DNA from: Escherichia phage vB_Eco_slurp01
DNA: 64,000 nt
Sequence record: LT603033
Strand: one strand, 5' to 3'
The position numbers and the translations under genes are program-made. Positions 12,051 through 60,456 of the stretch are shown here, piece after piece (positions within the stretch are counted from its first letter, which is position 1; every line of letters begins with the position of its first letter). Below the pieces are notes generated by a model. That model ran no database searches. It saw nothing but the letters and a program-made list of their open reading frames with translations, and had not been told where the DNA came from.

Positions 12051-12692
12051 ATGACTAAGCAAGAAATATTCAAAACTTTAATTGACATTTTGCGTCCATC
12101 AAAAACTCGTTGTGCGATGGAGTTTGATATTCCTTATGCTGAACGCGTAATCTTTCCACAAGTTAAAGCTGCTGGACTTACTTTGCTTGGAATGGGGATG
12201 TACTCTGTAGTAGTTGAACATAAAAACTATCCTGGACGAGCATTTAAAGTAACCACTTCACGCTGGGATGGTTTTCGTGCTTATGCAAAGTACTGCATTG
12301 AAAACGCAGGAACCAAGTTTCTTCCAGTGATCTACAGTGCCAACGAACAAGGAAACTTTGGATGGTATGAGATGGACAAGTACTATCCTATAATTAAACA
12401 AAAAAATAATTATGATGACTTTGTTAGTACTAAAATTGGAGATTTATATTCTTATGCACATGCTGGTCAGTACGCTACTTCAGTGAATGATATGCGTGGA
12501 AATTCTGAAGAGATTGCTATTGCGACGGTCGCTGCTAACATCATGAAAGAGTTTCACGGGCGTTTTGTACCAGACATTCATTCAAGTAATGTAATGATGG
12601 ATAAAGATGGGAATGTATTCATTACTGATCCTCTTTCGTGTGATGTGCGTAGAGAAATACCAATTACTGAAGAAGATCCAGTTTTTTATTGA
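12051..12692 (+). CDS. kinase-like fold protein (candidate atypical protein kinase)
   Basis: RBS AGAGGA; Gly-rich segment then K, and HGRFVPDIHSSNVMMDKDGNVFITDP resembling a kinase catalytic loop. Confidence 0.5.
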   Translation: MTKQEIFKTLIDILRPSKTRCAMEFDIPYAERVIFPQVKAAGLTLLGMGMYSVVVEHKNYPGRAFKVTTSRWDGFRAYAKYCIENAGTKFLPVIYSANEQGNFGWYEMDKYYPIIKQKNNYDDFVSTKIGDLYSYAHAGQYATSVNDMRGNSEEIAIATVAANIMKEFHGRFVPDIHSSNVMMDKDGNVFITDPLSCDVRREIPITEEDPVFY

Positions 12693-12753
12693 CAGAACTG
12701 ATGTTCTGATGTATTCTTAATAAACCATAAAAATTGCGGTAAAGGATAAAATC

Positions 12754-13035
12754 ATGCGTTCATTTGAAAACTTAATAGGTAAGCATCTTTTATCTGAAAT
12801 TGATGCAGACGTTAAAGAATTATCCAAATCAAAAAGTTACATTCATTTGGATGAACTATTTGTTAAGTACGGTGAGATTGGTTTTAAGTCATTATTTGTT
12901 TTTACTATGAAAGTACATAGTTTAAAGTACTTCGATTTGAGTGCTAAAGATGGTGAACCGAATCTATATTACATGTATTACCTTAAGAACAAAGATGAAG
13001 CTAATACATTACTCTCTGAATATATATTGGGGTAA
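12754..13035 (+). CDS. hypothetical protein
   Basis: RBS AAAGGA; 93 aa. Confidence 0.6.
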   Translation: MRSFENLIGKHLLSEIDADVKELSKSKSYIHLDELFVKYGEIGFKSLFVFTMKVHSLKYFDLSAKDGEPNLYYMYYLKNKDEANTLLSEYILG

Positions 13036-13037
13036 AA

Positions 13038-13376
13038 ATGGAACAATATTTTGAATTAATAAACAAAGTATCATTTTATGTAGTATCTTTGGTTTGGGTG
13101 TATTATATGTTTTGCTACATTATTGCATTCTTCCGATACACTACTTTATATGAACGTATCTACTATGATGCCCCAATTTCATTCTTGATGTTTTGTGCAT
13201 GTACGTGGGGAATATTAGAAGTACTGATATGTGGGTATAGTACTGATGAATTAAATCTGGTATCGGTCTTGACTGGGTTTTCATTTGTTGTTATGATAGC
13301 TGCCGTTCCAGTATGGTTGTTCTTTGGACTAGTTCATCGCATTGATATATGGCGTTCTAATATCCCTGAAAAGTAA
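13038..13376 (+). CDS. small membrane protein, family A member 1
   Basis: Two or three hydrophobic helices; C-terminal R-x-N-I/L-P-E motif shared with next two ORFs. Confidence 0.6.
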   Translation: MEQYFELINKVSFYVVSLVWVYYMFCYIIAFFRYTTLYERIYYDAPISFLMFCACTWGILEVLICGYSTDELNLVSVLTGFSFVVMIAAVPVWLFFGLVHRIDIWRSNIPEK

Positions 13377-13385
13377 GGATTTGTA

Positions 13386-13727
13386 ATGATTTATTACACT
13401 AACATGTTTGCCTATGCTGTTGCTTGCATTTACATTGTTTACTTCTTATTCGGTGGAGTACTGTGCTTCTTTAAGTACAAAACGTTGTTCAACCGAATGT
13501 ACCCAAATCATCCAATTGTAGTTGTACTTTTGATTCTTTCAGTTTCTCAAATAATCGTTGAAACTACAATGGGTATCAGTAGTGTACATTATAGTTTTGG
13601 TACTATAGTAATTATTACTATGCTTATTGCATACATTTTAGTACTTGGATATGGTATCTTTGGTAATATTGGTATGAAAATGTATCATCGAATTAAAACA
13701 TTACGTGATAATCTACCGGAGCGTTGA
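13386..13727 (+). CDS. small membrane protein, family A member 2
   Basis: Paralog of 13038..13376; C-terminal LRDNLPER. Confidence 0.6.
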   Translation: MIYYTNMFAYAVACIYIVYFLFGGVLCFFKYKTLFNRMYPNHPIVVVLLILSVSQIIVETTMGISSVHYSFGTIVIITMLIAYILVLGYGIFGNIGMKMYHRIKTLRDNLPER

Positions 13728-13728
13728 T

Positions 13729-14073
13729 ATGTATAATTTGAACCTAATCTCATATATTATAACAACACTGTTTACATTCTATGCCTTTGTTGGTATAATC
13801 CTACTGTACTTTAAATTTTATAAAGTGTTTAACCGTTTCTATCCTTCAATGGAGAATGAGTTTTTCTTTGTGTTGTACGTAGGTTACACGTTAATGGCTA
13901 CATGTTTCACTGTAGCCGATGGTGTCATCGGCATTAAAACTGATTCCCCAAATGGTAGTACGCTGGTTGCATTTATTCTTACCGGATTCCTTGCAACTTA
14001 TATTGCCTTCATTACAACATGGTCAGTTGTTGAATTTCTCTTGCGACTACGAAAGAATATGCCGAATAGATAG
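13729..14073 (+). CDS. small membrane protein, family A member 3
   Basis: Paralog; C-terminal LRKNMPNR; ATG at 13729 directly after upstream stop. Confidence 0.55.
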   Translation: MYNLNLISYIITTLFTFYAFVGIILLYFKFYKVFNRFYPSMENEFFFVLYVGYTLMATCFTVADGVIGIKTDSPNGSTLVAFILTGFLATYIAFITTWSVVEFLLRLRKNMPNR

Positions 14074-14082
14074 GAGACATAT

Positions 14083-14337
14083 ATGTTTGCGTTGCGTAAT
14101 AAAAACACTAAAGAATTATTATGTATTGATACCGTATGGGATTGTGCGGGGTCAACTACAGTTCTTGAAGAAGGAACTGGATATTGCGTGTTTGTTGTAC
14201 ATGATAGGAATGAACTCGAATTATTACTTGCTGAGTTCAATGCTGGTGGTAATCCTAACAGTACTGAATACCCTGAGATTATCAATCCAGCACCACCAGG
14301 CTCTTATGAAATTCTACAACTGTGGGAGTTGAAGTAA
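14083..14337 (+). CDS. hypothetical protein
   Basis: RBS AGGAG; 84 aa. Confidence 0.6.
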   Translation: MFALRNKNTKELLCIDTVWDCAGSTTVLEEGTGYCVFVVHDRNELELLLAEFNAGGNPNSTEYPEIINPAPPGSYEILQLWELK

Positions 14338-14717
14338 TGCGTCAAATGCACAAAGTAACCGAGCTAAACAAGCGTCTGGTTAAACAATCAATGTTCGAGG
14401 ATAAAGAGTCTTATTATAACTTTAAACGTGCAGTAGAGGCTGCTATCCACATTCAGAAGCTTAAAGAACGTGGTTGTATTATTCTGGAAAATGGTTCGGA
14501 AGTTGTAACGGATGACTTTAGTGTAGCGTTTGATGTTTCACCTGACGGGACGCTATCAATGCCCCGCTTAGGAACTGGAAACATGACTGTTTGGGTTGGC
14601 TTCACTATGGGGAATGTACCTGGTACTGTGTACGTAGATGATGCGGAATTGAAAGACAGTTTCAAAAACTTATCTTATCTTGAACCACAATACGCACATG
14701 AAATGAATTTATTTTGA
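14337..14717 (+). CDS. hypothetical protein
   Basis: TAATG coupling; about 126 aa. Confidence 0.55.
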   Translation: MRQMHKVTELNKRLVKQSMFEDKESYYNFKRAVEAAIHIQKLKERGCIILENGSEVVTDDFSVAFDVSPDGTLSMPRLGTGNMTVWVGFTMGNVPGTVYVDDAELKDSFKNLSYLEPQYAHEMNLF

Positions 14718-14742
14718 GTTGACAAACACATTCAGTACTGTA
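14709..14742 (+). promoter_or_regulatory. sigma70-like promoter
   Basis: TTGACA, 16-17 bp spacer containing CAGTACTG, TATAAT; followed by 5'-UTR hairpin GGGATGA-ACTTC-TCATCCC. Confidence 0.5.
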
Positions 14743-14793
14743 TAATGCTTATCAAGGGGATGAACTTCTCATCCCTACAATCGAGGAACTACC

Positions 14794-15348
14794 ATGATTA
14801 CTTTTAAGAAAACTGCTAACCACATCCATGAAATCTACATTAACGGTCACAAAGCTGGCCTTCTTCGTTTACTCGCCCATCATCCTGATGTTACCGTATC
14901 TGATAATGAACCTAAAGATTGGCGTGTATTTTTCTTTGGAAAGTACAGTGATTTTCAAGTATCAAACCTGAAGAACATTCGTTCAGTATGCACGTTAACT
15001 GAAATTAAAGAAAAGTTAGAAAAAGCATTGAAAACTAATCCAGATGGTGTTCTTCCACCTGATAACTTTGTAGAGAAAGGTTATGCATTAGCTCATTTCA
15101 AAGATGGTACTATTCAATCTATCAGTACTGAATATGAATATCAATGGACTGAGTACTTCACTTATGGATCGCGTAATACATTGATGGCTTCACGTAGTAA
15201 ATTGGAAGAAGTACTGACTCGTATGAATGAACGCGAACGTCAATTTTATGACAAACCAGAAATGTGGAGTTCAACTTACATTGACCGTATTGACTATGTT
15301 ATTATGACTCCAATCTTTGACACTGCTTACTATGATTCTTTGAAATAA
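14794..15348 (+). CDS. hypothetical protein
   Basis: RBS GAGGAA; 184 aa. Confidence 0.65.
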   Translation: MITFKKTANHIHEIYINGHKAGLLRLLAHHPDVTVSDNEPKDWRVFFFGKYSDFQVSNLKNIRSVCTLTEIKEKLEKALKTNPDGVLPPDNFVEKGYALAHFKDGTIQSISTEYEYQWTEYFTYGSRNTLMASRSKLEEVLTRMNERERQFYDKPEMWSSTYIDRIDYVIMTPIFDTAYYDSLK

Positions 15349-15359
15349 GGATAACTTAT

Positions 15360-15536
15360 ATGAAACTACGTACTCGTAATCGACTGATGGATGCACTGTA
15401 CCATGAACAGCTTTCACTGAATGAAGTGAAGCGTCAGTTAATGTACACATATCTGTTACCCGCTCGCATTGCAAAACAACGTGCTAAAGAATTGCTGAAA
15501 GAAGCAATCGAGTACTGGGAATCTGATTCGTACTAA
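15360..15536 (+). CDS. small hypothetical protein (58 aa)
   Basis: RBS AAGGA; below ORF-track length cutoff; fills intergenic gap. Confidence 0.45.
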   Translation: MKLRTRNRLMDALYHEQLSLNEVKRQLMYTYLLPARIAKQRAKELLKEAIEYWESDSY

Positions 15537-15564
15537 TTGTCACGTTAATTAAGTGAGGCGATAA

Positions 15565-15816
15565 ATGAAAATTTTATTAGTTCTAATACTACTAATTGTT
15601 TTACCATTTACGTTAGTATCCCCTGAACTTGCATGGAATGTGTTTGTGTACTTACTATGTACTATTGTAGTAAATGGTATCTTGTTCTTAGTTCTATTCA
15701 TAAATGGAATAGGACACGGTGGAGGATGGACCAGTACTGCTGATATTGTACATAAAACCACTATGTCTTTATTTGTAGTGTGGAATTTATTCTGGACTTG
15801 GTTTGTGTTCTTCTAA
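15565..15816 (+). CDS. small membrane protein
   Basis: RBS GTGAGG; highly hydrophobic 83 aa. Confidence 0.6.
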   Translation: MKILLVLILLIVLPFTLVSPELAWNVFVYLLCTIVVNGILFLVLFINGIGHGGGWTSTADIVHKTTMSLFVVWNLFWTWFVFF

Positions 15817-15825
15817 TTAAAAAAT

Positions 15826-16197
15826 ATGAATATAGATTTGAAAGGTGCAACCCGAACTGTTATCCTCATTGGGGAATACGCTATCAAGATTCCAACCTTT
15901 AAAAGTTGGAAGCTATTCTTAACAGGGATGATAGCTAACCTCAATGAACGTTCGTGGATGCAGTACTCCAAGCGTAGTGATACTGGTATCTGTCCTACTT
16001 TGTGGTCATCATGTACTGGACTAGTAACTGTACAGAAACGTTGTAAGCCAGTACAACATAGGGGTTTATTTTGGGTGGAGTTGTGTGCTTTAGCATTGAA
16101 TTCAGAGTTAAGTACTGACTTCTTCTATTCAGATGCGAAGCCAGAAAACTTTGGGTATCTGTGTGGTAAGTTGGTTAAACTTGATTATGGAGATTAA
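15826..16197 (+). CDS. mini kinase-like protein (truncated or atypical)
   Basis: Motifs AIKIP, DAKPENFG and KLDYG in kinase order; weak RBS. Confidence 0.4.
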   Translation: MNIDLKGATRTVILIGEYAIKIPTFKSWKLFLTGMIANLNERSWMQYSKRSDTGICPTLWSSCTGLVTVQKRCKPVQHRGLFWVELCALALNSELSTDFFYSDAKPENFGYLCGKLVKLDYGD

Positions 16198-16198
16198 T

Positions 16199-16468
16199 AT
16201 GTACGCACTGTATAATAAAGAAAAGAAACGATTTGCTAAGGTTGAAATTTCGATTGATACATTTGATATGTTGGAGTACTGTATTGTAACTGACCTATAT
16301 GCTAACTTGTATTACGTTCTTGATGACGTATCAGTACTGCAACGATTGCTTGAGAATTCCAAAAGTCAATGCCAAGGCATCCATGATGGTTCATCTTATG
16401 AAACACCTGAGTGTTCCTACGGCTATCTGGACGGGTATGAGATTGTGAAGTTGGGGATTGTTGAATAA
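16199..16468 (+). CDS. hypothetical protein
   Basis: ATG at 16199 after GGAG; track ORF N-extension overlaps previous gene. Confidence 0.5.
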   Translation: MYALYNKEKKRFAKVEISIDTFDMLEYCIVTDLYANLYYVLDDVSVLQRLLENSKSQCQGIHDGSSYETPECSYGYLDGYEIVKLGIVE

Positions 16469-16562
16469 ATGGATTAAACAATGAAGAAGTGTATGATTCT
16501 TTGTTCTAATCACCATCGCATGGTACATTCTGGTAGACTATGTTTGATTGAAAGAAAAAAAA

Positions 16563-16595
16563 AGGGTTGACTTCAGTCGGCCCTTTTTGCTATAA
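16563..16595 (+). promoter_or_regulatory. stem-loop/promoter hybrid (PeSL-like)
   Basis: GGGTTGACTTCAGTCGGCCC + TTTTT + TATAAT. Confidence 0.6.
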
Positions 16596-16624
16596 TCATT
16601 TCATCGAAACGAGAGGATGAATAC

Positions 16625-17059
16625 ATGACACGCATTAACTTAGTACACGTTAAAGAACTTGCTGACCAACATCTGATGGCTGAATATCGTGAACTCCCAC
16701 GTGTATTTGGTGCTGTACAAAAACACGTTCAAGCACGTAAGCGTGTACGTGATTTCAAAATTAACAGTACTTATCTGTTAGGTTCAGGTCATGTAACATT
16801 TTTCTACGACAAGTTACTGTACTTACAGAAGCGTCATATTGATATTGTCAACGAATGTCTGCGTCGTGGTATGAAGATTCAAAACACTGAAGTAAACGAC
16901 ATTAGCGGCTTCCCTGCTGAGTTTTGTAATGACTACATACCAACGGAGTCAGAGATTAAAATGTCTCGTGAACGTTTGATTGAGAAGCTCCAGATGAAGC
17001 CTACGTGGTATAAATTTACTGATGTTGAGTTACCTGAGTATTATCGTTCTATGATCTAA
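16625..17059 (+). CDS. denV: endonuclease V (pyrimidine-dimer DNA glycosylase/AP lyase)
   Basis: N-terminal MTRINL...[21 protein letters not shown] and ...[10 protein letters not shown]...PTWYK are near-identical to T4 endonuclease V as I recall it; RBS GAGAGGA. Confidence 0.9.
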
Positions 17060-17122
17060 AAAAAACATTAACACCAGTTTTATCTTTCAGTATCATGTAA
17101 CAAAGAAAATGAGGAATACAAC

Positions 17123-17482
17123 ATGGCATCTTTAAGTGAAATCGCAGAATACAACCCACTAACAATCTCAACAATTCAACGTACAAAAACTTTTTATTTC
17201 CGTCCTGCTGATGGATGGAAACGTGGAATGAATGGTGACTATCGAGTACTGGAAGATTCGCTCATCGAGCGTATCAACTCTGAACTACAGAAGTATGAAG
17301 GTGTTAAAGTTGTGCGTTCAACTTCTCGTTATTTTGAGTACTACATTGAGTCTTCAACTGTAAATGAAAACTCATCATTCTCGGTGGACAACACTGATAT
17401 TCTTCGTAATGCAGTTGGTTTGCTATGCAACATTGCAGAAGAAATGGGATTAACTATCGCCACAATGAGTGAGTTAGAATAA
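17123..17482 (+). CDS. hypothetical protein
   Basis: RBS GAGGAA; 119 aa. Confidence 0.65.
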   Translation: MASLSEIAEYNPLTISTIQRTKTFYFRPADGWKRGMNGDYRVLEDSLIERINSELQKYEGVKVVRSTSRYFEYYIESSTVNENSSFSVDNTDILRNAVGLLCNIAEEMGLTIATMSELE

Positions 17483-17488
17483 CATAAA

Positions 17489-17521
17489 GGGTTGACTTCG
17501 GTCAGCCCTTTTTGCTATAAT
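17489..17521 (+). promoter_or_regulatory. stem-loop/promoter hybrid (PeSL-like)
   Basis: GGGTTGACTTCGGTCAGCCC + TTTTT + TATAAT. Confidence 0.6.
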
Positions 17522-17547
17522 TATTTTATCGAAACGAGAGGTAATAC

Positions 17548-17787
17548 ATGAAACTATCTTTTATACGTTTAGCAGAATTCTTCGGTACTGATATAATTAC
17601 ATTACAACAAATTGCAGACAATACTTCATTAAGTACACAAGAAGTACTTGACTTGGATGTAATTAAGTGTGATAATACTTCCATCGATTACAAAGAAGGT
17701 CTTGTCGAAAAAGATAAGATTCAGGCTAAGATTAATGGTGCTGGACGGGTTCAGTACTGGAAAGGAGTTTTAAGTAATGCCAGCTAA
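17548..17787 (+). CDS. hypothetical protein
   Basis: RBS GAGAGG; 79 aa. Confidence 0.6.
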   Translation: MKLSFIRLAEFFGTDIITLQQIADNTSLSTQEVLDLDVIKCDNTSIDYKEGLVEKDKIQAKINGAGRVQYWKGVLSNAS

Positions 17788-19663
17788 ATTAACCCCTAAA
17801 CAAGCAAAAGAAAAATTCAACAATAAAGTATTAGAACATAACGTTCCAATTGAAGCTGATTATAGTAAGTATGAAAATGCCAAATTAAAAAACATCCAAG
17901 TAGTTTGCAATGATGTATTAAAACACAAATCAGGCATATCACAAGTATATCTTATGGATCACGCAAACCTCACACACCCATCTAAAAAATTTGGTTGTCC
18001 TGAATGTGAAGACTGGTATAATGGTCATGCTAAAAGTTTAGATATTTTAATTGTTAGGGAAAGAATTAATTCTTGGATTAGTACTTATGGTGGCATAATT
18101 GATACAGTTAGTGGTGAAGTTGAAGTTTATAAAAATAATTCAACAAAAATACCATATATTTGTAAAAATGGAACTAAAAAAACGCTTACTATTTCTACAC
18201 TGGGTGATGAAATCGGTTGTAATTGTTCTAAATGTAAATCTGAATTAATATCAGAAATCGAAGATAACAATGAATATACATCCATGACTACTGATGATGA
18301 TTGTGTTACAATTTCCCATTTTATATTTGGGGATGATGTTGCATTCTCGTGGATTTCACCATTGGAAATGAAAAAACATGGTTACGGTCTTGCCGAAAAA
18401 ATGAAAGAAAAAGCATTGTCGGTTGGTAAAAATATTATTGGATATGCAATATCATCTCTTAGTGAATGGAAAAATGAAAAAACTCCTGTAATAACGGAAC
18501 ACGAAGGAGTATTATATCGTATTTCCAGAGCATCATATTTGATCAATAATAATATAGTACATAGACCACATTATACAAAAAATAATTTTTTATATTATTT
18601 TTACAAATGTTCACCTAACAATCAACTTATTACACCAATCCTAATACCTGATGATGTTGGTACAAAAAAGAAAATTAAAGTATGTTATAAATCATGTGGG
18701 TGTGAATACGATATATCTGTGGACGTTATAATGAACAGAAATTTAAAAACTTGTGGAAACTGTAAAAATATAGATACTAAAACATTTATAGAAAAGTGCT
18801 TGGAGTTCAAATCAAGTGGAGAATATATCTATGATAGAGTAAACTATATAAATCAAAGTACACCTGTAACTATAGTTCATAAAATTTACGGAGAATTCAA
18901 AAGTACACCACAAAATCACTTAACACATTTAAAAAACAGTTTGAAATATGATACAGCTAACTTTAAAATAAAAAATCTAACTCAATTTAAAATTAAAGCA
19001 AATGAAGTTCATAATAACTTATATAATTATGATAAAGTTGATTATGTAAATTCTTCAACGAAAGTATTAATAACTCATCCAGTGTATGGAGACTTTTGGC
19101 AAACTCCAAATGGGCATTTGGCAGGTAAAGGACACCCGAAAGTCAAAGGTGGTGTTCCTTATACATGTGATGAATTTAAAATTAAAGCAAATGAAGTTCA
19201 TAATAACTTATATAATTATGATAAAGTTGATTATGTAAATTCTTCAACGAAAGTATTAATAACTCATCCAGTGTATGGAGACTTTTGGCAAACTCCAGCA
19301 AGTCACCTTTGTGGGTCTGGTCATCCACTTGCGGCTGGTCATTCTCAGCAATATGCATATATTCATAATATTTTGGATGGTGATTTATCTGTAGCATTGA
19401 AATATGGTATTGAAAAGCAGAAAGGTAAGAGGGTTATGCAGCAAAATAAAAAATCATTATTTAAAATTGAATCGTTACATACGTATTTTTTCACATCTGT
19501 GTTTGAGTGTAAGGAAGCTGAAAAAGAATGTAAAAAACTATTTGGTAAAGGCGTTTTAACTAAACAAGAAATGCCAGATGGTTATACTGAAACTACTACA
19601 CCAAACAACATAGATAAAATTATTGCAATCTATGAAAAATGGGGTGGGGTGAAAAAAAACTAA
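17777..19663 (+). CDS. Cys-rich repeat protein (628 aa), possible nuclease/homing-endonuclease-like
   Basis: RBS AAAGGAG; several CxxC/CxC clusters; at least three copies of a roughly 40-aa motif Y-x-YDKVDY-V-N-S-S-T-x-V-x-I-x-H-P-V-Y-G-x-F; function unverified. Confidence 0.65.
   Translation: MPAKLTPKQAKEKFNNKVLEHNVPIEADYSKYENAKLKNIQVVCNDVLKHKSGISQVYLMDHANLTHPSKKFGCPECEDWYNGHAKSLDILIVRERINSWISTYGGIIDTVSGEVEVYKNNSTKIPYICKNGTKKTLTISTLGDEIGCNCSKCKSELISEIEDNNEYTSMTTDDDCVTISHFIFGDDVAFSWISPLEMKKHGYGLAEKMKEKALSVGKNIIGYAISSLSEWKNEKTPVITEHEGVLYRISRASYLINNNIVHRPHYTKNNFLYYFYKCSPNNQLITPILIPDDVGTKKKIKVCYKSCGCEYDISVDVIMNRNLKTCGNCKNIDTKTFIEKCLEFKSSGEYIYDRVNYINQSTPVTIVHKIYGEFKSTPQNHLTHLKNSLKYDTANFKIKNLTQFKIKANEVHNNLYNYDKVDYVNSSTKVLITHPVYGDFWQTPNGHLAGKGHPKVKGGVPYTCDEFKIKANEVHNNLYNYDKVDYVNSSTKVLITHPVYGDFWQTPASHLCGSGHPLAAGHSQQYAYIHNILDGDLSVALKYGIEKQKGKRVMQQNKKSLFKIESLHTYFFTSVFECKEAEKECKKLFGKGVLTKQEMPDGYTETTTPNNIDKIIAIYEKWGGVKKN
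18974..19300 (+). repeat. perfect intragenic direct duplication (about 130 bp x2, separated by about 60 bp)
   Basis: AATTTAAAATTAAAGCAAATGAAGTTCATAATAAC...GGAGACTTTTGGCAAACTCCA occurs twice identically. Confidence 0.85.
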
Positions 19664-19669
19664 ACAAAA

Positions 19670-53131: not shown

Positions 53132-53212
53132 TACTTGCAATTAGTTTTTAGTACTGTATAATAGTTTACATGAAGGGGAGAAATGATTCTCCCCAAGAAC
53201 AGGAGAAATAAA

Positions 53213-53589: not shown

Positions 53590-53596
53590 AAAAAGT

Positions 53597-53628
53597 GGTT
53601 GACTTCGGTCAGCCATTTTGCTATTATA
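53597..53628 (+). promoter_or_regulatory. stem-loop/promoter hybrid (PeSL-like)
   Basis: TGGTTGACTTCGGTCAGCCA + TTTTG + TATTAT. Confidence 0.55.
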
Positions 53629-53800
53629 TATTCATTGAGAGATAGCTCACTAGCCCACAGGGTGCAGGAGTGTATCTATTGTATAATGTTTGAGTACTGA
53701 AAACTATTTTTAAAAAAGTACTTGAAAACTATCTCAATTGGCGTATAATGTTTTACATCGCAAGGGGAAACGGTTTCCCCTGGTAATAAGGAAACGAATC

Positions 53801-54142
53801 ATGACTATCTCAATTGCTCAATCTAACTTTGAAAATGAAATCATCGCCCAGGTACTGCGTTTAAATGATGGTCGGGCCGAAATTAATTACGGTTTCAATT
53901 CAGGCGGTTGTGAAAACTATCAGTACTTTGTAACGGCTGATGGCGGTGTCCTGGGCATCAATACAGTTATTGTAAACATCCAAAAAATTAATTTCAATGA
54001 TCCAGACGATAGCCAGTTTTACATCACTGGCGTAGACGTGAACTATGAGGATGACTCACTAACTGATGATTACACTGGTGAGCGGTTAGAAAGTGCTTAT
54101 GGTGAAGATGATTATCAGTCAGTACCGGAAGATTTCGAATAA
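53801..54142 (+). CDS. hypothetical protein
   Basis: RBS AAGGAA; 113 aa. Confidence 0.6.
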   Translation: MTISIAQSNFENEIIAQVLRLNDGRAEINYGFNSGGCENYQYFVTADGGVLGINTVIVNIQKINFNDPDDSQFYITGVDVNYEDDSLTDDYTGERLESAYGEDDYQSVPEDFE

Positions 54143-54234
54143 TATAAAAAATAGTTTGACAATAGATTATAGTACTGTATAATAGTTTACATCAAGGGGA
54201 GAATAGTTCTCCCCACTAACAGAGAAAAAACAAA

Positions 54235-54447
54235 ATGGCTAATATCCGCACTGTACTGAAAAATGCAAAACAAGTTTTATTTTCTGATCATGATACTTTC
54301 AACAAGGATATTACTGGCGTTCGGAATATCAAAGATGTAAAAAGTGTTATGGGTATCTATTGCAATATGAAACGTGTTGGAACGTTCGGCGACAAAGTAC
54401 TATACCAGGCAGGGGATTACAATTTTACACTGACTATCATTAACTAA
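54235..54447 (+). CDS. hypothetical protein
   Basis: Promoter + GGGGAGAA-TAG-TTCTCCCC hairpin upstream; 70 aa. Confidence 0.55.
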   Translation: MANIRTVLKNAKQVLFSDHDTFNKDITGVRNIKDVKSVMGIYCNMKRVGTFGDKVLYQAGDYNFTLTIIN

Positions 54448-54530
54448 AAATATTATCACAGTACTATTGACATAGTTTGATAGTACTGACATAATAAGTT
54501 TTATCAACTACACTACTAAGGAATTAAAAA

Positions 54531-54710
54531 ATGGCTATCATCGCAAAAACTGAAATCATCGGCCTGGATTCTATCATCATGACGTTTGAAGATCAAAAAG
54601 GTATGTATGTGGTTTCCTATGGTGATTATGTTCGGGAGTATGAAACGGTAGACGAAGCCTTTGAAAGTTACATTCGCCAGGTGAATAAAGCATACGACGA
54701 CTACCGCTAA
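54531..54710 (+). CDS. small protein (59 aa)
   Basis: RBS AAGGAA; promoter TTGACA...CATAAT upstream. Confidence 0.5.
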   Translation: MAIIAKTEIIGLDSIIMTFEDQKGMYVVSYGDYVREYETVDEAFESYIRQVNKAYDDYR

Positions 54711-54809
54711 AATATATTACCAGTACTATTAAAGATATTGACAACGTTTGATAGTACTGTATAATAAGTTTTATCAACAGTAGTTAACTTAACCTAAGAG
54801 AGAAACAAA

Positions 54810-54953
54810 ATGATCGCACTGGATTCATTCATCGACGCAGTACTGGCAAAAACTGGCGAGGATCTGACCGCAGAACAATACGCAATGATCGAGCAATGCC
54901 AGCAAGACGGTAAATCGGTGAAAGATACTGTTAAGATTATCCGCAAGATGTAA
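54810..54953 (+). CDS. small protein (47 aa)
   Basis: RBS AAGAGAGA; followed by terminator hairpin. Confidence 0.45.
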   Translation: MIALDSFIDAVLAKTGEDLTAEQYAMIEQCQQDGKSVKDTVKIIRKM

Positions 54954-54959
54954 GATTAT

Positions 54960-54990
54960 AGCCCACTGGTTAACGCTGGTGGGCTTTAAT
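54960..54990 (+). terminator. intrinsic terminator-like hairpin
   Basis: AGCCCAC-TGGTTAACGC-TGGTGGGCT + TTAATT. Confidence 0.5.
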
Positions 54991-55058
54991 TCATTACCCT
55001 ATACAATGCCAGTACTAAACCGTTTATCTCCTTAGAATGCGTTACAGGACGTTTGACA

Positions 55059-55256
55059 ATGATTAGCATGAAATCAGTACAAAAACAAATAGAAACATTA
55101 TCAAAAATTAAACGTAAACAGTACTCGTTAGAATATACAATCAATGGTAACTATCATCTAATGAAAGAGAATAATTTCATTGTCATTGATGAATCATTGC
55201 AAATCATTAGTATAGTACTGAAAGCATTAATCAATGACAGAAAAAAATTAAAATAA
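55059..55256 (+). CDS. hypothetical protein
   Basis: ATG at 55059/55068; weak RBS; about 65 aa. Confidence 0.45.
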   Translation: MISMKSVQKQIETLSKIKRKQYSLEYTINGNYHLMKENNFIVIDESLQIISIVLKALINDRKKLK

Positions 55257-55587
55257 TATATTGACAATATCCTCCAGTACTGGCATAATACTTACATCAA
55301 GACGAGAACGTCACTAACCCATAGGGTGCACAAATGTAACTGTATAATATTGATCAAAAAATGATCTGATCAATACTTGATCAATTTGCGTAAAGTAGTA
55401 TAATTCTATGCAGTTGGTTAGACGAAAGGTTATGATTAGTAGTGCAAGTGTATAAAAATTTTCATGGTGTATCGTTTCGCACATATGGGGATGAATATGT
55501 GGTATCATGTGGATTGGAAAAAGTAAGAACAAGTAATATTATTGTCGCATTACAGTACTATAGTATTTTTATAATGAGGTTAAAATA
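55257..55587. promoter_or_regulatory. 330-bp non-coding control region with tandem promoters and TTGATCAA/GATC cluster
   Basis: TTGACA...CATAAT; conserved AACCCATAGGGTGCA motif; TATAAT then TTGATCAA x3 (4 GATC in about 35 bp). Confidence 0.5.
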
Positions 55588-55845
55588 ATGGCTGTAGGAT
55601 TCGCGAAAGATGGGGCCGAACAAGACGAGATTAACGCAGTGATTCAGGCCGCCGTTAACCACGCTAGAAAGCAAATTAACGCACAAATAGAATCACTGAT
55701 ACATTGCCTCGACTGCGGCGATATAATCCCTGAGAAACGACGCCAGGCCGTTAAGGGGTGTAAGTACTGCATAACTTGCCAGGAGGATCATGATAGTACT
55801 TTTAAACGTCCCCCGCGTAATTGTTGGCATAGATCTATGAGATAA
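55588..55845 (+). CDS. DksA/TraR-family C4 zinc-finger protein
   Basis: C-x2-C-G-x-x-I-P-E-x-R-R...C-x2-C pattern (CLDCGDIIPEKRRQAVKGCKYCITC); RBS GAGG. Confidence 0.6.
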   Translation: MAVGFAKDGAEQDEINAVIQAAVNHARKQINAQIESLIHCLDCGDIIPEKRRQAVKGCKYCITCQEDHDSTFKRPPRNCWHRSMR

Positions 55846-55920
55846 AAAGTATTGACAGTACTATCCAGTAGTGTTATAGTACTTACATCAAGGGGAAACA
55901 TCTTCCCCTACTAAGAGGAA

Positions 55921-56115
55921 ATGAAAATGGAAAACTTATCAAGTATTTTAGTACAAGATGATTTCGGTAATCCTGGAAGTGCTATCATTGTTCGGGGTAA
56001 TAAAGCAACATTTGTTATTGCTGGTGGACCTGTACAGCGTAGCATTAAAAATAATGCTGTTACCATTAATAATGTACGCTATCGCTTAGATAAAGAATTG
56101 ATTCATAAACTGTAA
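55921..56115 (+). CDS. hypothetical protein
   Basis: RBS AAGAGGAA; 64 aa. Confidence 0.6.
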   Translation: MKMENLSSILVQDDFGNPGSAIIVRGNKATFVIAGGPVQRSIKNNAVTINNVRYRLDKELIHKL

Positions 56116-56142
56116 TATTAATTTAATAGAGGATAACAATAA

Positions 56143-56466
56143 ATGTACATTCATACTACTATCACAAAGGAAGTCCGTTGCCAGTTCGAAAGTATTCCGG
56201 GCGTATGTTTCATCACTGGTACGTTTTCCCCTGGTGATCGTGATAATCCAGTACTGTTACAATTACGCCATCCATCATGGGATAAAGCATTTGATCTACC
56301 GTTGAATGAATTCGCAACTACTGCTGAAAAGTACATTAAAAATATTCGCGAGAATGATCGACTATTCATTAATGCTTTTAGTGATTCCGCGTTAAGCGAG
56401 ATCCACGGCGTATTGGTTGCAATCATGGAATCAATGGAGAAAACTAAATTCAAACAAGGTGAATAA
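56143..56466 (+). CDS. hypothetical protein
   Basis: RBS AGAGGA; 107 aa. Confidence 0.65.
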   Translation: MYIHTTITKEVRCQFESIPGVCFITGTFSPGDRDNPVLLQLRHPSWDKAFDLPLNEFATTAEKYIKNIRENDRLFINAFSDSALSEIHGVLVAIMESMEKTKFKQGE

Positions 56467-56549
56467 AAACTATTGACAAGATAATCTAGTACTGTATAAT
56501 AAGTTACATGAAGGGGAGAAATGATTCTCCCCACTAAGAGGAAAGAAAA

Positions 56550-56762
56550 ATGCAAGGTCAACTAATCGTTCGTAAATGGTCTGATACTAACGAAAAACCG
56601 TGGGATGTACAATACATCGGACCGGATGGGGTATCACGTTATCAGCCAGGCGTAACGCATAGTACTGAGCAATATGCCGCCGCTCACCGCGAACGCCTGT
56701 TAGAATCCATGAAACAGGGATTCTGTGAAAAATTCATTCAAGATCATTGGCTGAAAGATTAA
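56550..56762 (+). CDS. hypothetical protein
   Basis: RBS AAGAGGAA; 70 aa. Confidence 0.6.
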   Translation: MQGQLIVRKWSDTNEKPWDVQYIGPDGVSRYQPGVTHSTEQYAAAHRERLLESMKQGFCEKFIQDHWLKD

Positions 56763-56779
56763 TAGAAGGAGTACAGCTT

Positions 56780-56872
56780 ATGCAAATGAATCCGATGATT
56801 ATTGTTTTAGCTGTACTTATGATCATTCATGCAATAGTAGAAGTATTAACGCAATCAGGAGTAATAAAATGA
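56780..56872 (+). CDS. tiny membrane peptide (30 aa)
   Basis: Strong RBS AAGGAG; hydrophobic. Confidence 0.4.
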   Translation: MQMNPMIIVLAVLMIIHAIVEVLTQSGVIK

Positions 56873-57042
56873 TTCAAGTAGAATTATCAGTACTAAAAGA
56901 TCTGTTTTATCGGATTGGTACTACTGGCGAATATCCGAAGGGTGATAATGCAAAACTTTACGTATCACTCGACTTATGGCAACGCGAACAATTAGCAACG
57001 GCCTGGCGTAAAGGCAAAGCAGATAGCGAGGTGAAAGCATGA
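56869..57042 (+). CDS. small protein (57 aa)
   Basis: ATGA overlap. Confidence 0.45.
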   Translation: MIQVELSVLKDLFYRIGTTGEYPKGDNAKLYVSLDLWQREQLATAWRKGKADSEVKA

Positions 57043-57188
57043 AAGAATTCTTATTTGAAGTAGTGTTTCAAGGTGTCGGTAATAACCAACTGATTCGCTC
57101 AAGTGGTTACAATGTTAACCAGGCATGGAATAACATTAAACAAATGTACCCGAACGCTATCACATATCGCAACCCGAAAGAAGTTTAA
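57039..57188 (+). CDS. small protein (49 aa)
   Basis: ATGA overlap; followed by hairpin/promoter element. Confidence 0.45.
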   Translation: MKEFLFEVVFQGVGNNQLIRSSGYNVNQAWNNIKQMYPNAITYRNPKEV

Positions 57189-57202
57189 AAATAATTGAAA
57201 AA

Positions 57203-57235
57203 GGGATTGACTCCGGTCAGTCCCTTTGCTATTAT
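57203..57235 (+). promoter_or_regulatory. stem-loop/promoter hybrid (variant)
   Basis: GGGATTGAC-TCCG-GTCAGTCCC + TTTGC + TATTAT. Confidence 0.55.
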
Positions 57236-57362
57236 ATACGCATAGAAACAAATCAGCCCACCGGGTGCATAAATGTATCTATTATATGCTGGTGGCTAGT
57301 ACTGAAAACTATTTTTAAAAAGTACTTGCATTGTACTTAGAATCAAGTATAATGTTTTACAT

Positions 57363-57440
57363 CAGGACGGGGAACGAAACAAGTAACCCCGTTAAGTAGT
57401 CCAGGAGTAAGACATAAGAAAACCTCCCCTGATAAAATAG
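57363..57440 (+). ncRNA. conserved roughly 80-nt structured element (copy 2)
   Basis: Near-identical to 47967..48046; between tandem promoters. Confidence 0.35.
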
Positions 57441-57502
57441 TTTGACAATAGAAAGTAAACGAGTATAATACTTACATCAACCACTGATAAGGAAACATAA
57501 AA

Positions 57503-57778
57503 ATGCGGATTCTACTGACAGCTAACGAAATCGAACAAGTACTGACTACTAACCTGGAAGACTGGAAACGTGAAGCAGATATCCAGGCGGTTCAACGGCT
57601 TAACGATGAGTTAACGCCGGATGACTTAAGCAAGATTGTAGATCCTCAATTCTACGAAGATATCCACGACACCGCGTTAAGCGTCGAGGATGTACTAGAT
57701 AAGCACTACATTGATATTGATTTGCAGGTTTACGGTCGTAAAAACTTTATCACTATTCACGACATTTACAATAATTAA
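57503..57778 (+). CDS. hypothetical protein
   Basis: RBS AAGGAAA; 91 aa. Confidence 0.6.
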   Translation: MRILLTANEIEQVLTTNLEDWKREADIQAVQRLNDELTPDDLSKIVDPQFYEDIHDTALSVEDVLDKHYIDIDLQVYGRKNFITIHDIYNN

Positions 57779-57865
57779 GTATTGACAAAGTATCTTAGTA
57801 CTGTATAATAGTTTACATCAAGCGAGGGGAATGGTTCCCCTCCTAACTAAAAGAGAGAAATAAAA

Positions 57866-58048
57866 ATGGCTAAGTGCACTATCTGCAAGAAAGAAATAGT
57901 ATTAGTTCCAAGTGCCCGTGAACGTGCCGCTCGGTTCGGTGGCAAAGCGTCAGACTATACAAAAATGTTTACTACCCATACAGCTTGCCAGGTAGCAAAA
58001 CGTTCACAAGAAAGCGTAGAATTAATGCGTAAACTTTCCAAAAAATAA
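57866..58048 (+). CDS. small Cys-containing protein, possible zinc ribbon
   Basis: CTIC...HTAC pattern; 60 aa. Confidence 0.55.
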   Translation: MAKCTICKKEIVLVPSARERAARFGGKASDYTKMFTTHTACQVAKRSQESVELMRKLSKK

Positions 58049-58136
58049 GTATTGACAAAGTATCTTAGTACTGTATAATAGTTTACATCAAGTGAGGGGA
58101 AACGGTTCCCCTCCTAACAAAGAGAGAGAAATAAAA

Positions 58137-58460
58137 ATGGCTATGATCCTTGCCCAGAAAGTGGAACTGAAAATTGTAACCTCCTTTGACATTAATGTTA
58201 ATCGGTGGACTGATTCACACGGCAATACTTACCACTCTTGCTACGTGTCTGCGTTAATTGGCGACCGCTGGGAAGACCTGGGACACGAAACCTTTACATA
58301 CGGTTACGGTACACAAGGCGAATACACGGGCTTGGAGATCATTAAAGAAACCGTTATAGGTTTCAACCCGAAAGAAAAAGTTATTCACCGCATCGAGGAA
58401 GAGATCAACAAAGAAATAACAGTTCGCTACCACGATGTAAAACGTAAGAAAGACATGTAA
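58137..58460 (+). CDS. hypothetical protein (paralog of 51703..52026)
   Basis: Shared motifs as listed for 51703 ORF. Confidence 0.65.
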   Translation: MAMILAQKVELKIVTSFDINVNRWTDSHGNTYHSCYVSALIGDRWEDLGHETFTYGYGTQGEYTGLEIIKETVIGFNPKEKVIHRIEEEINKEITVRYHDVKRKKDM

Positions 58461-58555
58461 TAGAATCCATTTAAAGTACTATTTGACATTGCCCAGATAG
58501 TACTTTATAATAGACTCTAACTTGTAGTACTAACTCAACTAATAGGATGTATACC

Positions 58556-58951
58556 ATGATTACTAAATTCTACGCTACCCGTGAAGCTGCCCGTATTGTT
58601 GCACGCGAGGAAGGAGCAGCATTTAAAGACATGGGCAAAGATGCACCGAAAGGTCAACGCTGGGCCGTACAGTTCAAAGAAATCTCTGATATCGTGAATT
58701 CACCGGAGCCAGTACTAACAGCAGCAGAACTAAAACGAGCGGATTTACTGGCGGCAGTACTTAACGCACAAGATGAATTTATCGCTGATTCTGATATCAA
58801 AGTACAGACAAACCATACCGCTTGGACTCACGCGGATCACCTGGCAAACCTTAAGCGTCCAAGTGAACTGGTTCGCAACCAGAAAGAGATCCGACACGAC
58901 CGTAAGGGTAATCGTGTAACAGTATACAGTAAACGCCGCCAGGTTATCTAA
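58556..58951 (+). CDS. hypothetical protein (paralog of 47099..47365)
   Basis: Shared motifs FYATREAARI...FKDMG...RKGNRVTVY. Confidence 0.65.
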   Translation: MITKFYATREAARIVAREEGAAFKDMGKDAPKGQRWAVQFKEISDIVNSPEPVLTAAELKRADLLAAVLNAQDEFIADSDIKVQTNHTAWTHADHLANLKRPSELVRNQKEIRHDRKGNRVTVYSKRRQVI

Positions 58952-58973
58952 TAACTTGCAGTACTAACAACAC

Positions 58974-58998
58974 GGCGGGATCAGTTCCCGCCTTTTTT
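58974..58998 (+). terminator. intrinsic terminator
   Basis: GGCGGGA-TCAG-TTCCCGCC + TTTTTT. Confidence 0.7.
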
Positions 58999-59013
58999 AT
59001 AGGATAAACTAAA

Positions 59014-59268
59014 ATGATTAAGGTACAACTATCTAAAGATAATATCTTGCGGGTACACTATAAAGCACCACAGAGAATCATCACAAAGGCCGTACAGCTT
59101 GCTAATGAGTTTATTAATGGTAACCTATTACCAAGGAAGTTAAGCAACGGAAAACTGCGTGTAATCGATGTAGATACTAACAACAGAATAGTAATTGAGA
59201 ACACAGGAAAGATAAACCTATATGAACACCAACAATATAATAAGAAAATAAAACTAATATCACGTTGA
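59014..59268 (+). CDS. hypothetical protein
   Basis: RBS AGGA; 84 aa. Confidence 0.6.
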   Translation: MIKVQLSKDNILRVHYKAPQRIITKAVQLANEFINGNLLPRKLSNGKLRVIDVDTNNRIVIENTGKINLYEHQQYNKKIKLISR

Positions 59269-59321
59269 CAGTACTCAATTGTTTTAGTATTATGTACACA
59301 TACCAACACGGGAGAAACAAA

Positions 59322-59540
59322 ATGAAATTATCTAAAATCGAAAAGAAAACTATTGATGAAGCAGTTAAGCACGGTTATACCTTTCGTAATGATTCACATT
59401 TTACCAATTTTCAACAAGGCCAAAGGACTATTAAAAAACTAATTGACAAAGGTTTATTAGTTAAAGTAGATAACGGTAACGGCATTGAGTATCAGCCAAC
59501 CCAAGACACATTATCTTTAAAGAAATATGCAATTATCTAA
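59322..59540 (+). CDS. hypothetical protein
   Basis: Promoter TTGACAGTACTCAATTGTTTTAGTATTAT upstream; RBS GGGAGAAA. Confidence 0.55.
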   Translation: MKLSKIEKKTIDEAVKHGYTFRNDSHFTNFQQGQRTIKKLIDKGLLVKVDNGNGIEYQPTQDTLSLKKYAII

Positions 59541-59597
59541 TTGACAGTACTCAAATGTTTTAGTACTATATGTACATACCAACACGGGGAAAACAAA

Positions 59598-59840
59598 ATG
59601 ATTACTTTAGAAAAACGTATCAAAGAAACTACATCGCTGGTGGAACTGTTAACAGTACTGAAATGCCGTACTACTCGGTTTAGTACACCGGACTTTATTA
59701 ATATGGTTGATGTTAACGGTCGTTATCGCATTGCAGTAGAACAAGGAACAGCGAAAGTATTCAGTACTAAAAACACTAAGGAAGTGATTCACGCTGTAAG
59801 TGTTAAAAAAGTAGTTGCCATTGATAGTAAAGTACTGTAA
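59598..59840 (+). CDS. hypothetical protein
   Basis: Near-duplicate promoter/leader of previous gene; RBS GGGGAAAA. Confidence 0.55.
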   Translation: MITLEKRIKETTSLVELLTVLKCRTTRFSTPDFINMVDVNGRYRIAVEQGTAKVFSTKNTKEVIHAVSVKKVVAIDSKVL

Positions 59841-59871
59841 GATAGTTTCATTAACTCAAGGAGAACATGCA

Positions 59872-60456
59872 ATGCGTAATTATACTAAATTCATCCGTAC
59901 ACTGTCAGAAATGGAAACCAACAAAGAGATCCTTTCAGCTTGTCGGTTAGCTGGTCTGGAGATCATCGGTGCGGGTTCTTCCCGTATTGTATTCGCTTTA
60001 AATGATCGGTTAGTGATCAAGGTCGCGAATTGTGATGCGGGTGTAGAACAAAATGAAACTGAATGTAAGGTATGGAATTTTTTAGATTATGACCGCCCTC
60101 AATTGAAACAGTACTTTGCAAAGGTGCATATGCATTTATGCGATCCTGATAATATGTTTATCGTTATGGATCGGTTGAGTACTGCAAGTAAAGGCAGTGT
60201 GAAGCACGTTAACGCGTGCAACGAATTAAAGTACAATATTAAACGTAATGCCATTGAACGCCAGCACCGCTTTGCTGATGCACTACAACACGTCGATGAT
60301 ACATTATCAACACTAACGATAAGAGATATCAGAAAACAGAATATCGGCCAGGATCGTAATGGCCTTATTAAAGTACTTGATTACGGTTTAACCCGCAATA
60401 TCTGGAATCAGTACTATAAAAAGCGTGATGTAAAAGCCGTAACTATAACACGATAA
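59872..60456 (+). CDS. kinase-like fold protein (candidate atypical Ser/Thr kinase)
   Basis: RBS AAGGAG; IGAGSSRIV...VIKVA (Gly-loop + Lys), IRDIRKQNIG (catalytic-loop-like), VLDYG (DFG-like). Confidence 0.55.
   Translation: MRNYTKFIRTLSEMETNKEILSACRLAGLEIIGAGSSRIVFALNDRLVIKVANCDAGVEQNETECKVWNFLDYDRPQLKQYFAKVHMHLCDPDNMFIVMDRLSTASKGSVKHVNACNELKYNIKRNAIERQHRFADALQHVDDTLSTLTIRDIRKQNIGQDRNGLIKVLDYGLTRNIWNQYYKKRDVKAVTITR

Follow-up and report, generated by a model that had tools for sequence, protein, structure and literature searches.

A 64,000 nt stretch of the genome of Escherichia phage vB_Eco_slurp01 (sequence record LT603033), referred to below as the window, encodes three stand-alone members of the protein-kinase-like (PKL) superfamily that are minimal at their C-terminal ends and fall into two lineages. 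One lineage is represented by p1 (the product of 12051..12692) and the other by p2 (15826..16197) and p3 (59872..60456). p1 is an ordinary case, a protein of an already known kind related to the kinase gp0.7 of phage T7 (T7K); the family behind p2 is worth experimental follow-up. It is highly likely that all three have the kinase fold and are related to kinases by descent. The residues used for binding Mg-ATP and transferring the gamma-phosphate are kept in the sequences of all three, and the reading we favour, and regard as reasonably likely, is that p1, p3 and p2 would be unregulated minimal phosphotransferases acting on host proteins.

An earlier note on this DNA had described three open reading frames (ORFs) with kinase motifs in kinase order, encoding compact protein-kinase-like folds. 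Translation confirmed the ORFs, all on the plus strand, and the order of their motifs (Table 1), and the folds are borne out by the homology of p1 to T7K, by the kinase matches of the p3-family profile and by the fold model of p2. 'Minimal kinases' is the best-fitting of the options that the note had offered. The matches to PHROG profiles have E-values of 4.7e-92 for p1 (phrog_15752), 9e-43 for p2 and 7.9e-42 for p3 (both phrog_4301), and so are not due to chance. Searches of all 376 window ORFs of at least 50 aa, by phmmer and with profiles, gave no kinase-like ORF beyond these three.

p1 is related to the T7 kinase

The profile matched best by p1 is annotated 'protein kinase; inhibitor of host transcription...', and a second, phrog_2828, is matched at 8.1e-17. 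By BLASTP, p1 aligns with residues 68–216 of T7 gp0.7 at 27% identity (E 6e-9). In this alignment G49, one of the two glycines of the LGMG motif (G47/G49), is paired with T7K G76, the lysine of AFKV (K66) with T7K K93, and the catalytic loop D175-I-H-S-S-N180 with D195-x-H-x-x-N200. The sequence D193-P-L, found in place of DFG, is paired with the DPV at T7K 213–215, and the chain ends 18 residues later. Both glycines and K66 are invariant in the alignment of the p1 family. Judged by these alignments, p1 is a true homologue of an experimentally proven kinase, and it is very probably catalytically active.

T7K is a proven Ser/Thr/Tyr kinase with an anti-defence role; it disarms several defence systems and is the most promiscuous kinase described (PMC13645617). 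Its kinase domain (residues 1–242, with DPV at 213–215) is hyperactive and hyperpromiscuous, and the G76F mutant is catalytically dead (PMC13645617). The motifs G-x-G, VxK, DxHxxN and DP(V/L) are common to T7K and p1, as is the setting of an early gene of a lytic coliphage, which for p1 is presumed from its promoter. They differ in that p1 has DPL rather than DPV and, at 213 aa compared with 359 aa for T7K, lacks the C-terminal shut-off (SO) DNA-binding domain that follows residue 242 of T7K. The T7K family corresponds to PHROG 2828/15752 and also includes Salmonella phage JSS1_004 (PMC12345140), and the jumbophage G17 has been named as bearing one without the SO domain (PMC13645617). In the jumbophage homologues the SO domain is lost and the valine of DPV is less conserved; activity and substrate range of the jumbophage T7K homologue 'remain to be elucidated' (PMC13645617).

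Counterparts of p1 carry the label 'protein kinase' in the records of phAPEC6 (gp031c), 121Q, G17 and other phages. The earlier note cited T7 gp0.7 as an example of a phage kinase and overlooked both the existing kinase annotation of p1 and its publication as a T7K homologue. The Pfam search gave no kinase-related match for p1, and the p1-family profile had no significant match among PDB sequences. All p1 homologues bear the precomputed Pfam accession PF27024.1.

p2 and p3 represent a second kinase-like family

p2 (123 aa) and p3 (194 aa) both belong to PHROG 4301, a phage-specific family labelled 'unknown function'; p2 matches positions 40–167 of the 225 in the profile, and p3 positions 13–185. 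In p2 the relevant residues are G7 (in KGATR), K21 (in AIKIP), E41 (in NLNE) and the catalytic loop D103-A-K-P-E-N108; D120-Y-G is followed by one residue and then the stop codon. The AlphaFold2 model of p2 has a pLDDT of 90.1 and a pTM of 0.80 (all five models between 88 and 90), and its topology runs beta1-3, alphaC, beta4-5, alphaE, catalytic loop, beta7-8 and DYG. As predicted, then, the structure consists of an N-lobe and only the catalytic core of a C-lobe; alphaD is also absent from the model. Among the matches listed, its fold neighbours are almost all kinase-fold proteins, with 104–117 of the 123 residues aligned. They include JAK (listed at 8.8), TTK (8.3), BRAF (8.1), PknB (8.0), OspG (7.0) and HopBF1 (6.5), and also APH(2''), Rio1/2, Bud32 and Ark1.

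At the level of sequence, a p2 profile of 15 sequences had no match among solved structures. A profile of 133 sequences matched only TTK kinases in the PDB at E<0.1, over the catalytic loop and DFG, at borderline values (E 0.024–0.07). p2 itself has no match in Pfam, NCBIfam or PADLOC, and no convincing Pfam-A match was found in the 133 family members. As the direct matches to PDB sequences are borderline, it is the fold model and the relationship to p3 that tie p2 to the kinases.

p3 is a new and lightly annotated member of the kinase-like superfamily. It has G33/G35 (in IGAGSS), K50 (in VIKV), E64 (in NETE), the catalytic loop D152-I-R-K-Q-N157, and D170-Y-G with only 22 residues beyond it. 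All of these glycines, K50, E64, D152 and D170 are invariant in its family, and N157 is nearly so. The family is small, numbering 13 clusters at 90% identity, and its members come only from jumbo phages of the Asteriusvirus and RaK2-like groups; a few GenBank records call it a Ser/Thr kinase. Searched alone, p3 matches Pkinase (PF00069) with an E-value of 0.0022 and 17.9 bits, under the curated cut-off of 31.7; PknB and PD-T4-6 are among its other sub-threshold kinase matches (Pfam, NCBIfam and PADLOC searches). A profile built from 14 homologues matched 252 solved protein kinases at E<=1, the best being MKK4 (E 1.6e-4), and the match to MKK7 covers residues 29–182, from the Gly loop to past the DYG. 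In Foldseek, every top match of the p3 model has a kinase-like fold (APH(2''), MTR kinase, PRPK and Mps1, probability about 1.0), a result to be read as indicative since the AlphaFold2 model is poor in its C-terminal half and good for the N-lobe only. Structure prediction, which the earlier note had proposed as a check, thus returned kinase-like folds for both proteins, from a confident model for p2 and a weak one for p3.

The p2 and p3 families align over their full length in hhalign (133-member p2 profile; probability 95.1%, E 3e-8), and the same p2 profile retrieves p3 from all window ORFs at 4.2e-7, so that p2 and p3 are best described as distant paralogues. The comparisons with the p1 (T7K) family were not significant, with hhalign probabilities of 0.8% for the p2 family and 5% for the p3 family. 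The alignment of the p3 and p1 families spans both proteins with the motifs in the same order, yet is not significant. A common origin of the T7K family and the p2/p3 family was considered and set aside, neither comparison being significant. Literature searches on minimal or truncated phage kinases, and on kinases of Asteriusvirus, found no description of the p2/p3 family.

Size and conservation of the p2 family

When 1.84 billion representative proteins were searched exhaustively with a profile, at least 1212 clusters fell in the p2 family (50% identity, E<=1e-3), with 639 at E<=1e-10. The best 150 matches are nearly all 110–135 aa long, and 160 members taken for analysis had a median of 123 aa. 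In 97 of 156 cases the last position of the profile is the exact end of the protein, and most of the others end within two residues. The 15 closest homologues of p2 (118–127 aa) all end one residue past L-D-[YFA]-G, and the closest matches the family profile with an E-value of 7e-53. Some family matches carry extra sequence: P0165 (257 aa) has about 140 residues past a DYA motif, P0197 (230 aa) has a 110-residue N-terminal extension, and P0188 is 205 aa long. A further match, P0082 (1073 aa), is highly repetitive and probably spurious.

The most conserved columns of the family are the kinase catalytic positions, with a catalytic loop of the form (D/E)xKxx(N/S). Counted in 159 family representatives, the nucleotide-loop glycine (G7) is kept in 155, the beta3 Lys (K21) in 157 and the alphaC Glu (E41) in all 159; the catalytic residue at D103 (D or E) in 153, the catalytic-loop Lys (K105) in 135, the N or S at N108 in 153, and the DFG Asp (D120) in 155. 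All seven positions are intact in 126/159. At profile positions 100 and 105, equivalent to D103 and N108, 100 sequences have D..N, 42 have E..S and 8 are mixed, an association with a Fisher p of about 3e-28 when kinship of the sequences is ignored. This co-change suggests a maintained active site, possibly with non-standard chemistry; the pattern may also be the mark of two clades by shared ancestry.

Comparison with known kinases

Features that characterise the PKL superfamily are present in the three proteins: the N-lobe Gly with a Lys/Glu pair (in p1, Gly and Lys), an Asp..Asn catalytic loop with a metal-binding Asp, and the fold (for p2, and for p3 in a weak model). The best matches of p2 and p3 in both sequence and fold are Hanks-type Ser/Thr kinases (TTK/Mps1, MKK4/7, PknB), which share with the p2 family the beta3 Lys, the alphaC Glu, the D-x-K-x-x-N loop and D-[FY]-G. 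These kinases have subdomains VIII–XI (the activation segment with APE, and alphaF–alphaI), whereas p2 and p3 do not. The gathering threshold of PF00069 is not reached by p3, and p1 and p2 have no match to it. With the C-lobe absent and scores below threshold, p1, p2 and p3 are not canonical Pkinase domains.

The kinase domain of T7K ends about 27 residues past its DFG equivalent, and so it has, like p1, p3 and p2, 'no post-DFG lobe'. There is no significant sequence relation between T7K and p2 or p3, which use DYG and a Lys-containing catalytic loop.

In OspG/NleH and HopBF1 the kinase fold is likewise small (solved chains of 169–176 aa), the C-lobe is reduced and a regulatory activation loop is lacking; they act on proteins of another organism, as is proposed for the phage proteins. 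OspG needs a binding partner for full activity (PMC11078946). The partner of OspG is an E2~ubiquitin conjugate. A difference is that OspG/NleH and HopBF1 keep helices past the DFG whereas p2, some 45–50 residues shorter, has none. The effectors are also secreted, into eukaryotic cells; p2 and p3, as phage proteins, would act inside bacteria. No sequence-level relation and no preferential structural similarity was found between these effectors and p2 or p3.

The earlier note had raised a Kdo/RIO-like identity, which is not supported. No RIO1 or Kdo Pfam match at E<=1 was found for p1, p2 or p3, and ordinary protein kinases are at least as close in fold as RIO and Bud32. The RIO, Bud32/PRPK and Kdo/WaaP families are not known to have the catalytic-loop Lys seen in p2. 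p1, p2 and p3 are not members of the RIO, Bud32 or Kdo families.

Proposed activity and alternative explanations

p2 and p3 appear to keep an ATP-binding N-lobe (glycine-containing turn, beta3 Lys and alphaC Glu). They also have the hinge and alphaE, a catalytic loop that reads D-x-K-x-x-N in p2 but D-x-x-K-x-N in p3, and the DYG motif for binding Mg. As the tails beyond this motif are 18, 1 and 22 residues long in p1, p2 and p3, there is no activation loop, P+1 pocket or set of helices alphaF–alphaI. We propose that p1, p3 and p2 would be Mg-ATP-binding phosphotransferases, constitutively open and free of regulation, by analogy with the T7K kinase domain, which is active with only about 27 residues past its DPV. 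After infection they would probably target host proteins, for take-over or counter-defence. For p2, protein substrates are favoured because D-x-K-P-E-N contains the Lys of the Ser/Thr-kinase type. From their conserved residues, p3 is probably catalytically active, and for p2 the case for activity is about evenly balanced; protein substrates for the three are proposed with less confidence than activity itself.

A more far-reaching form of the proposal, which we offer tentatively, is that the p2-family proteins of about 120 aa could be autonomous, active 'half-kinases' and the smallest protein kinases known, working without helix alphaF or a substrate-binding lobe and either phosphorylating host proteins promiscuously, for take-over or anti-defence, or borrowing a host protein as a C-lobe. 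To our knowledge, p2 is smaller than any characterised kinase.

Several observations weigh against the proposal of active host-directed phosphotransferases. p2 has a lone glycine (GxTR) rather than GxGxxG, and about one third of its family has Glu for the catalytic Asp and Ser for the Asn, which is unusual for protein kinases. In canonical kinases helix alphaF anchors the catalytic and regulatory spines; p2 has no alphaF, and its stability or activity may for that reason need dimerisation or a partner protein. The AlphaFold2 model of p3 is poor: its pLDDT, 63 overall, drops under 50 in the catalytic loop and DYG. The class of substrate does not follow from the fold, since small-molecule kinases, RNA kinases and SAICAR synthetase are all among the structural neighbours. 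Early timing is not general for the p2 family, because a homologue in Salmonella prophages sits in a late operon, between the Rz lysis gene and terminase Nu1. Lastly, the totals of the promoter and terminator scans of the window were not enriched over shuffled sequence.

Of the alternatives, an unlikely one, although the best of them, is that p2, and perhaps p3, is a non-enzymatic module that binds nucleotides or proteins (a decoy, sponge, inhibitor or activator), or a half-enzyme that needs the C-lobe of a host or phage partner, much as OspG depends on its conjugate. The loss from p2 of helix alphaF and all later elements would fit this, as would the roughly 21% of family representatives in which one or more of the seven catalytic positions is missing, and small phage proteins are commonly binders. 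Against a non-enzymatic role, it is precisely the catalytic positions that are the most conserved columns, and the D-to-E and N-to-S changes coincide, although shared ancestry could also give this. As for a half-enzyme, no conserved partner gene lies nearby; the partner may be a host protein. The related suggestion of a pseudokinase, made in the earlier note, is unlikely in view of the catalytic residues kept across hundreds of divergent p2-family clusters.

It is quite unlikely, but a real alternative given the fold neighbours and the ligase, DenV and polymerase genes found beside family members, that p2 and p3 are active kinase-fold enzymes with a non-protein substrate, such as a small molecule, a nucleotide or the end of an RNA or DNA (compare the aminoglycoside phosphotransferases (APH), MTR kinase and the archaeal RNA kinases Ark1/ArkI). 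APH(2'') and MTR kinase are the best Foldseek matches of the p3 model, the part of the kinase C-lobe that binds protein substrates is wholly missing, and p2 homologues are often found amid nucleic-acid repair and replication genes (rnlB, denV, DNA ligase or polymerase, nrd). However, the p2 loop D-A-K-P-E-N-F-G bears the Lys typical of Ser/Thr protein kinases (HRDLKPEN), which is lacking in the APH/choline-kinase motif HxDxxxxN, and matches at the sequence level are only to protein kinases (TTK, MKK4 and MKK7). The gene neighbourhoods of p2 are, moreover, unconserved, and genes of DNA metabolism abound in any case in the early and middle regions of phages.

That p2 is the decaying pseudogene of a p3-like or full-length kinase, or a set of chance motifs in an AT-rich ORF, is highly improbable: the missing annotation in phAPEC6, the want of a Shine-Dalgarno sequence and the abrupt stop after DYG are outweighed by hundreds of divergent homologues of equal length and C-terminus, by the coverage of at least 80% of p2 in 114/117 phage records, by E-values of 9e-43 and 7e-53, and by a confident fold model. 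The conservation of length and residues throughout the family in fact refutes a truncated pseudogene.

Distribution and gene neighbourhoods of the p2 family

By tblastn, the p2 family was found in 117 phage records, 114 of which cover at least 80% of p2. The source names are nearly all 'hypothetical protein', with kinase names in two Erwinia phage records. In phAPEC6 (MK817115.1, 22182..22550) p2 is unannotated and falls in a gap between gp024c and gp023c; in the sister phages it is mostly annotated as a hypothetical protein.

Homologues occur in jumbo phages of Asteriusvirus, Erwinia and Ralstonia. The T4-like Dhakavirus JS10 has one directly upstream of rnlB, an rV5-like phage has one after the DNA polymerase gene, the Felix-O1-like phage SPJ41 has one between the genes for DNA ligase and DNA polymerase, and the N4-like Gamaleyavirus also has a homologue. 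Aeromonas jumbo phages bear p2 homologues as well, as a tandem pair in Aeromonas phage PS1 (locus L014, 2142..2866); the upstream copy of that pair is far more divergent (E 8.7e-6 against the family profile). In a metagenomic contig (L008) the homologue lies among nrd genes. In Pseudomonas Nipunavirus siphoviruses, PaMx25 among them (locus L018, 2402..3312), the p2 homologue and the start of denV overlap. In the window, a T4-type denV (endonuclease V, 16625..17059) lies about 430 bp downstream of p2, and this proximity there and in the unrelated PaMx25 could reflect a shared cassette or coincidence.

The tequatrovirus Bas45 (PaulHMueller, BASEL collection) has a p2 homologue, gene bas45_0262, inserted between the homologues of trna.3 and trna.2 (locus L019, 2501..2881). 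The ipI-tRNA region of T4 (locus L020, 6629..7329) has no member of the family, so that Bas45 and T4 form a natural presence/absence pair in a tractable model phage.

The homologue in Salmonella enterica lambdoid prophages (loci L005/L006, 6001..6372) is 123 aa long and 45% identical to p2. The site between Rz and Nu1 is a classical moron position. The family is therefore also present in temperate phages, where its expression may be late or come from the lysogen.

When the ORFs flanking p2 homologues at 11 other loci, from unrelated phages and prophages, were compared all against all, no gene was consistently linked; only DenV (two loci) and DNA polymerase (two loci) recurred. In the absence of a linked gene, the p2 gene behaves as a mobile, stand-alone accessory gene and not as half of a split kinase. 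The specific possibility that p2 is completed by the ORF at 16199..16468, or by another fixed neighbour, was examined and dropped, as there was no recurrent partner.

Genomic setting, start codons and control sites

The earlier note had compared the proteins with standard T4 features, but the phage is not T4, and T4 itself lacks the p2 gene. Nucleotide identity indicates that the window is from an Asteriusvirus jumbo coliphage with a genome of about 350 kb. Over 5.6 kb, the p1-p2 region shares 99.5% identity with Escherichia phage vB_EcoM_phAPEC6; with 121Q, PBECO4, G17 and others the identity is 98% (Asteriusvirus jumbo phages of about 350 kb). The annotated direct terminal repeat of phage vB_Ec-M-J is 21.5 kb long, and its position 1 maps to position 44519 of the window (96.7% identity). 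As judged from this alignment, the window takes in the last part of the unique region and the beginning of the direct terminal repeat. The final 19.5 kb or so, p3 included, would then probably lie in the repeat. From the mapped repeat start, p3 is about 15 kb within it, and its orthologues are within the annotated direct terminal repeats of vB_Ec-M-J and Klebsiella phage fENko-Kae01. p1 and p2 are about 32 kb and 29 kb before the repeat. The vB_Ec-M-J repeat has no annotated gene in its first 1.7 kb.

Table 1. Coordinates of the three kinase-like genes, their motifs and upstream sites within the window.
Feature	Coordinates	Strand	Basis or remark
p1, 213 aa, T7K-family kinase without shut-off domain	12051..12692	+	PHROG, BLASTP
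p1 motifs	LGMG 12186-12197; AFKV 12240-12251; DIHSSN 12573-12590; DPLS 12627-12638	+	translation
p2, 123 aa, mini kinase-like	15826..16197	+	phrog_4301, AlphaFold2 model
p2 motifs	KGATRT 15841-15858; AIKIP 15880-15894; NLNE 15937-15948; DAKPEN 16132-16149; DYGD-stop 16183-16197	+	translation
p3, 194 aa, kinase-like	59872..60456	+	phrog_4301, family profile
p3 motifs	IGAGSS 59965-59982; VIKV 60013-60024; NETE 60052-60063; DIRKQN 60325-60342; DYG 60379-60387	+	translation
p1 control region	11991..12043	+	hairpin GGTTGAC-TTCG-GTCAGCC, then T-run (terminator-like)
Promoter-like TTGACT-18-TATGAT	11993-12022	+	overlaps the hairpin upstream of p1; consensus match, putative function
Promoter-like TTGCCA-17-TAAGAT	59815-59843	+	upstream of p3; consensus match, putative use by host RNA polymerase

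A ribosome binding site (RBS), GAGGA (12039-12043), lies 7 nt before the ATG of p1 at 12051, and AAGGAG (59858-59863) lies 8 nt before the ATG of p3 at 59872. The homologues are likewise 213 aa and 194 aa long, and the spacing and equal lengths together support the chosen starts. No Shine-Dalgarno sequence was found at the start of p2, which is separated by 9 nt from the stop codon of the upstream gene.

The promoter scan gave sigma70-like promoters directly upstream of p1 and p3. As the scan was unenriched overall, only sites directly upstream of genes were used, and these are marked as putative. phAPEC6 has no RNA polymerase of its own and uses the host RNA polymerase with a phage-encoded sigma factor (PMC7247149). 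On the strength of these sigma70-like sites, the polymerase dependence of phAPEC6 and, for p3, the position of its orthologues within terminal repeats, early transcription of p1 and p3 by the host polymerase is plausible.

Some features of neighbouring regions were also noted. Between p1 and p2, three consecutive ORFs of about 112–122 aa (13038..13376, 13386..13727 and 13705..14073) look by eye like tandem paralogues encoding a small membrane protein of the multi-pass type; they have a common C-terminal ending R-x-N-[ILM]-P-[EN]-[KR]. The ORF at 11223..11552, equivalent to phAPEC6 gp033c (hypothetical protein), has a C-terminal half that is rich in lysine and aspartate and of low complexity (KNKKDKDKDKKEDKKPLKDKKKDKKPNPFK). 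Just upstream of p3, the region 59265..59840 carries two neighbouring small genes with ATG codons at about 59322 and 59598, each preceded by a near-identical promoter-like element, TTGACAGTACTCAA[T/A]TGTTTTAGTA. This element has 2 exact-class matches in the window compared with 0 expected, and the region resembles a local duplication of promoter and gene.

Significance

A 2026 study in Nature found that the T7 kinase disarms many bacterial defences through phosphorylation of almost every host protein (PMC13645617). The study found T7K homologues almost only in T7-like phages and two groups of jumbophages (PMC13645617). The window shows a T7K homologue in one jumbo phage side by side with two members of another kinase-like family, which is unnamed and unrelated to the first. 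Bas45, in the BASEL collection, bears a member of the p2 family annotated only as a hypothetical protein, and as this is the name given almost everywhere, the family deserves a database model. If its members are active, phosphorylating the host would be a common trait of unrelated phages, well beyond the T7 family, and the minimal functional unit of the kinase fold would be about 120 residues, which would matter for kinase evolution and for enzyme design.

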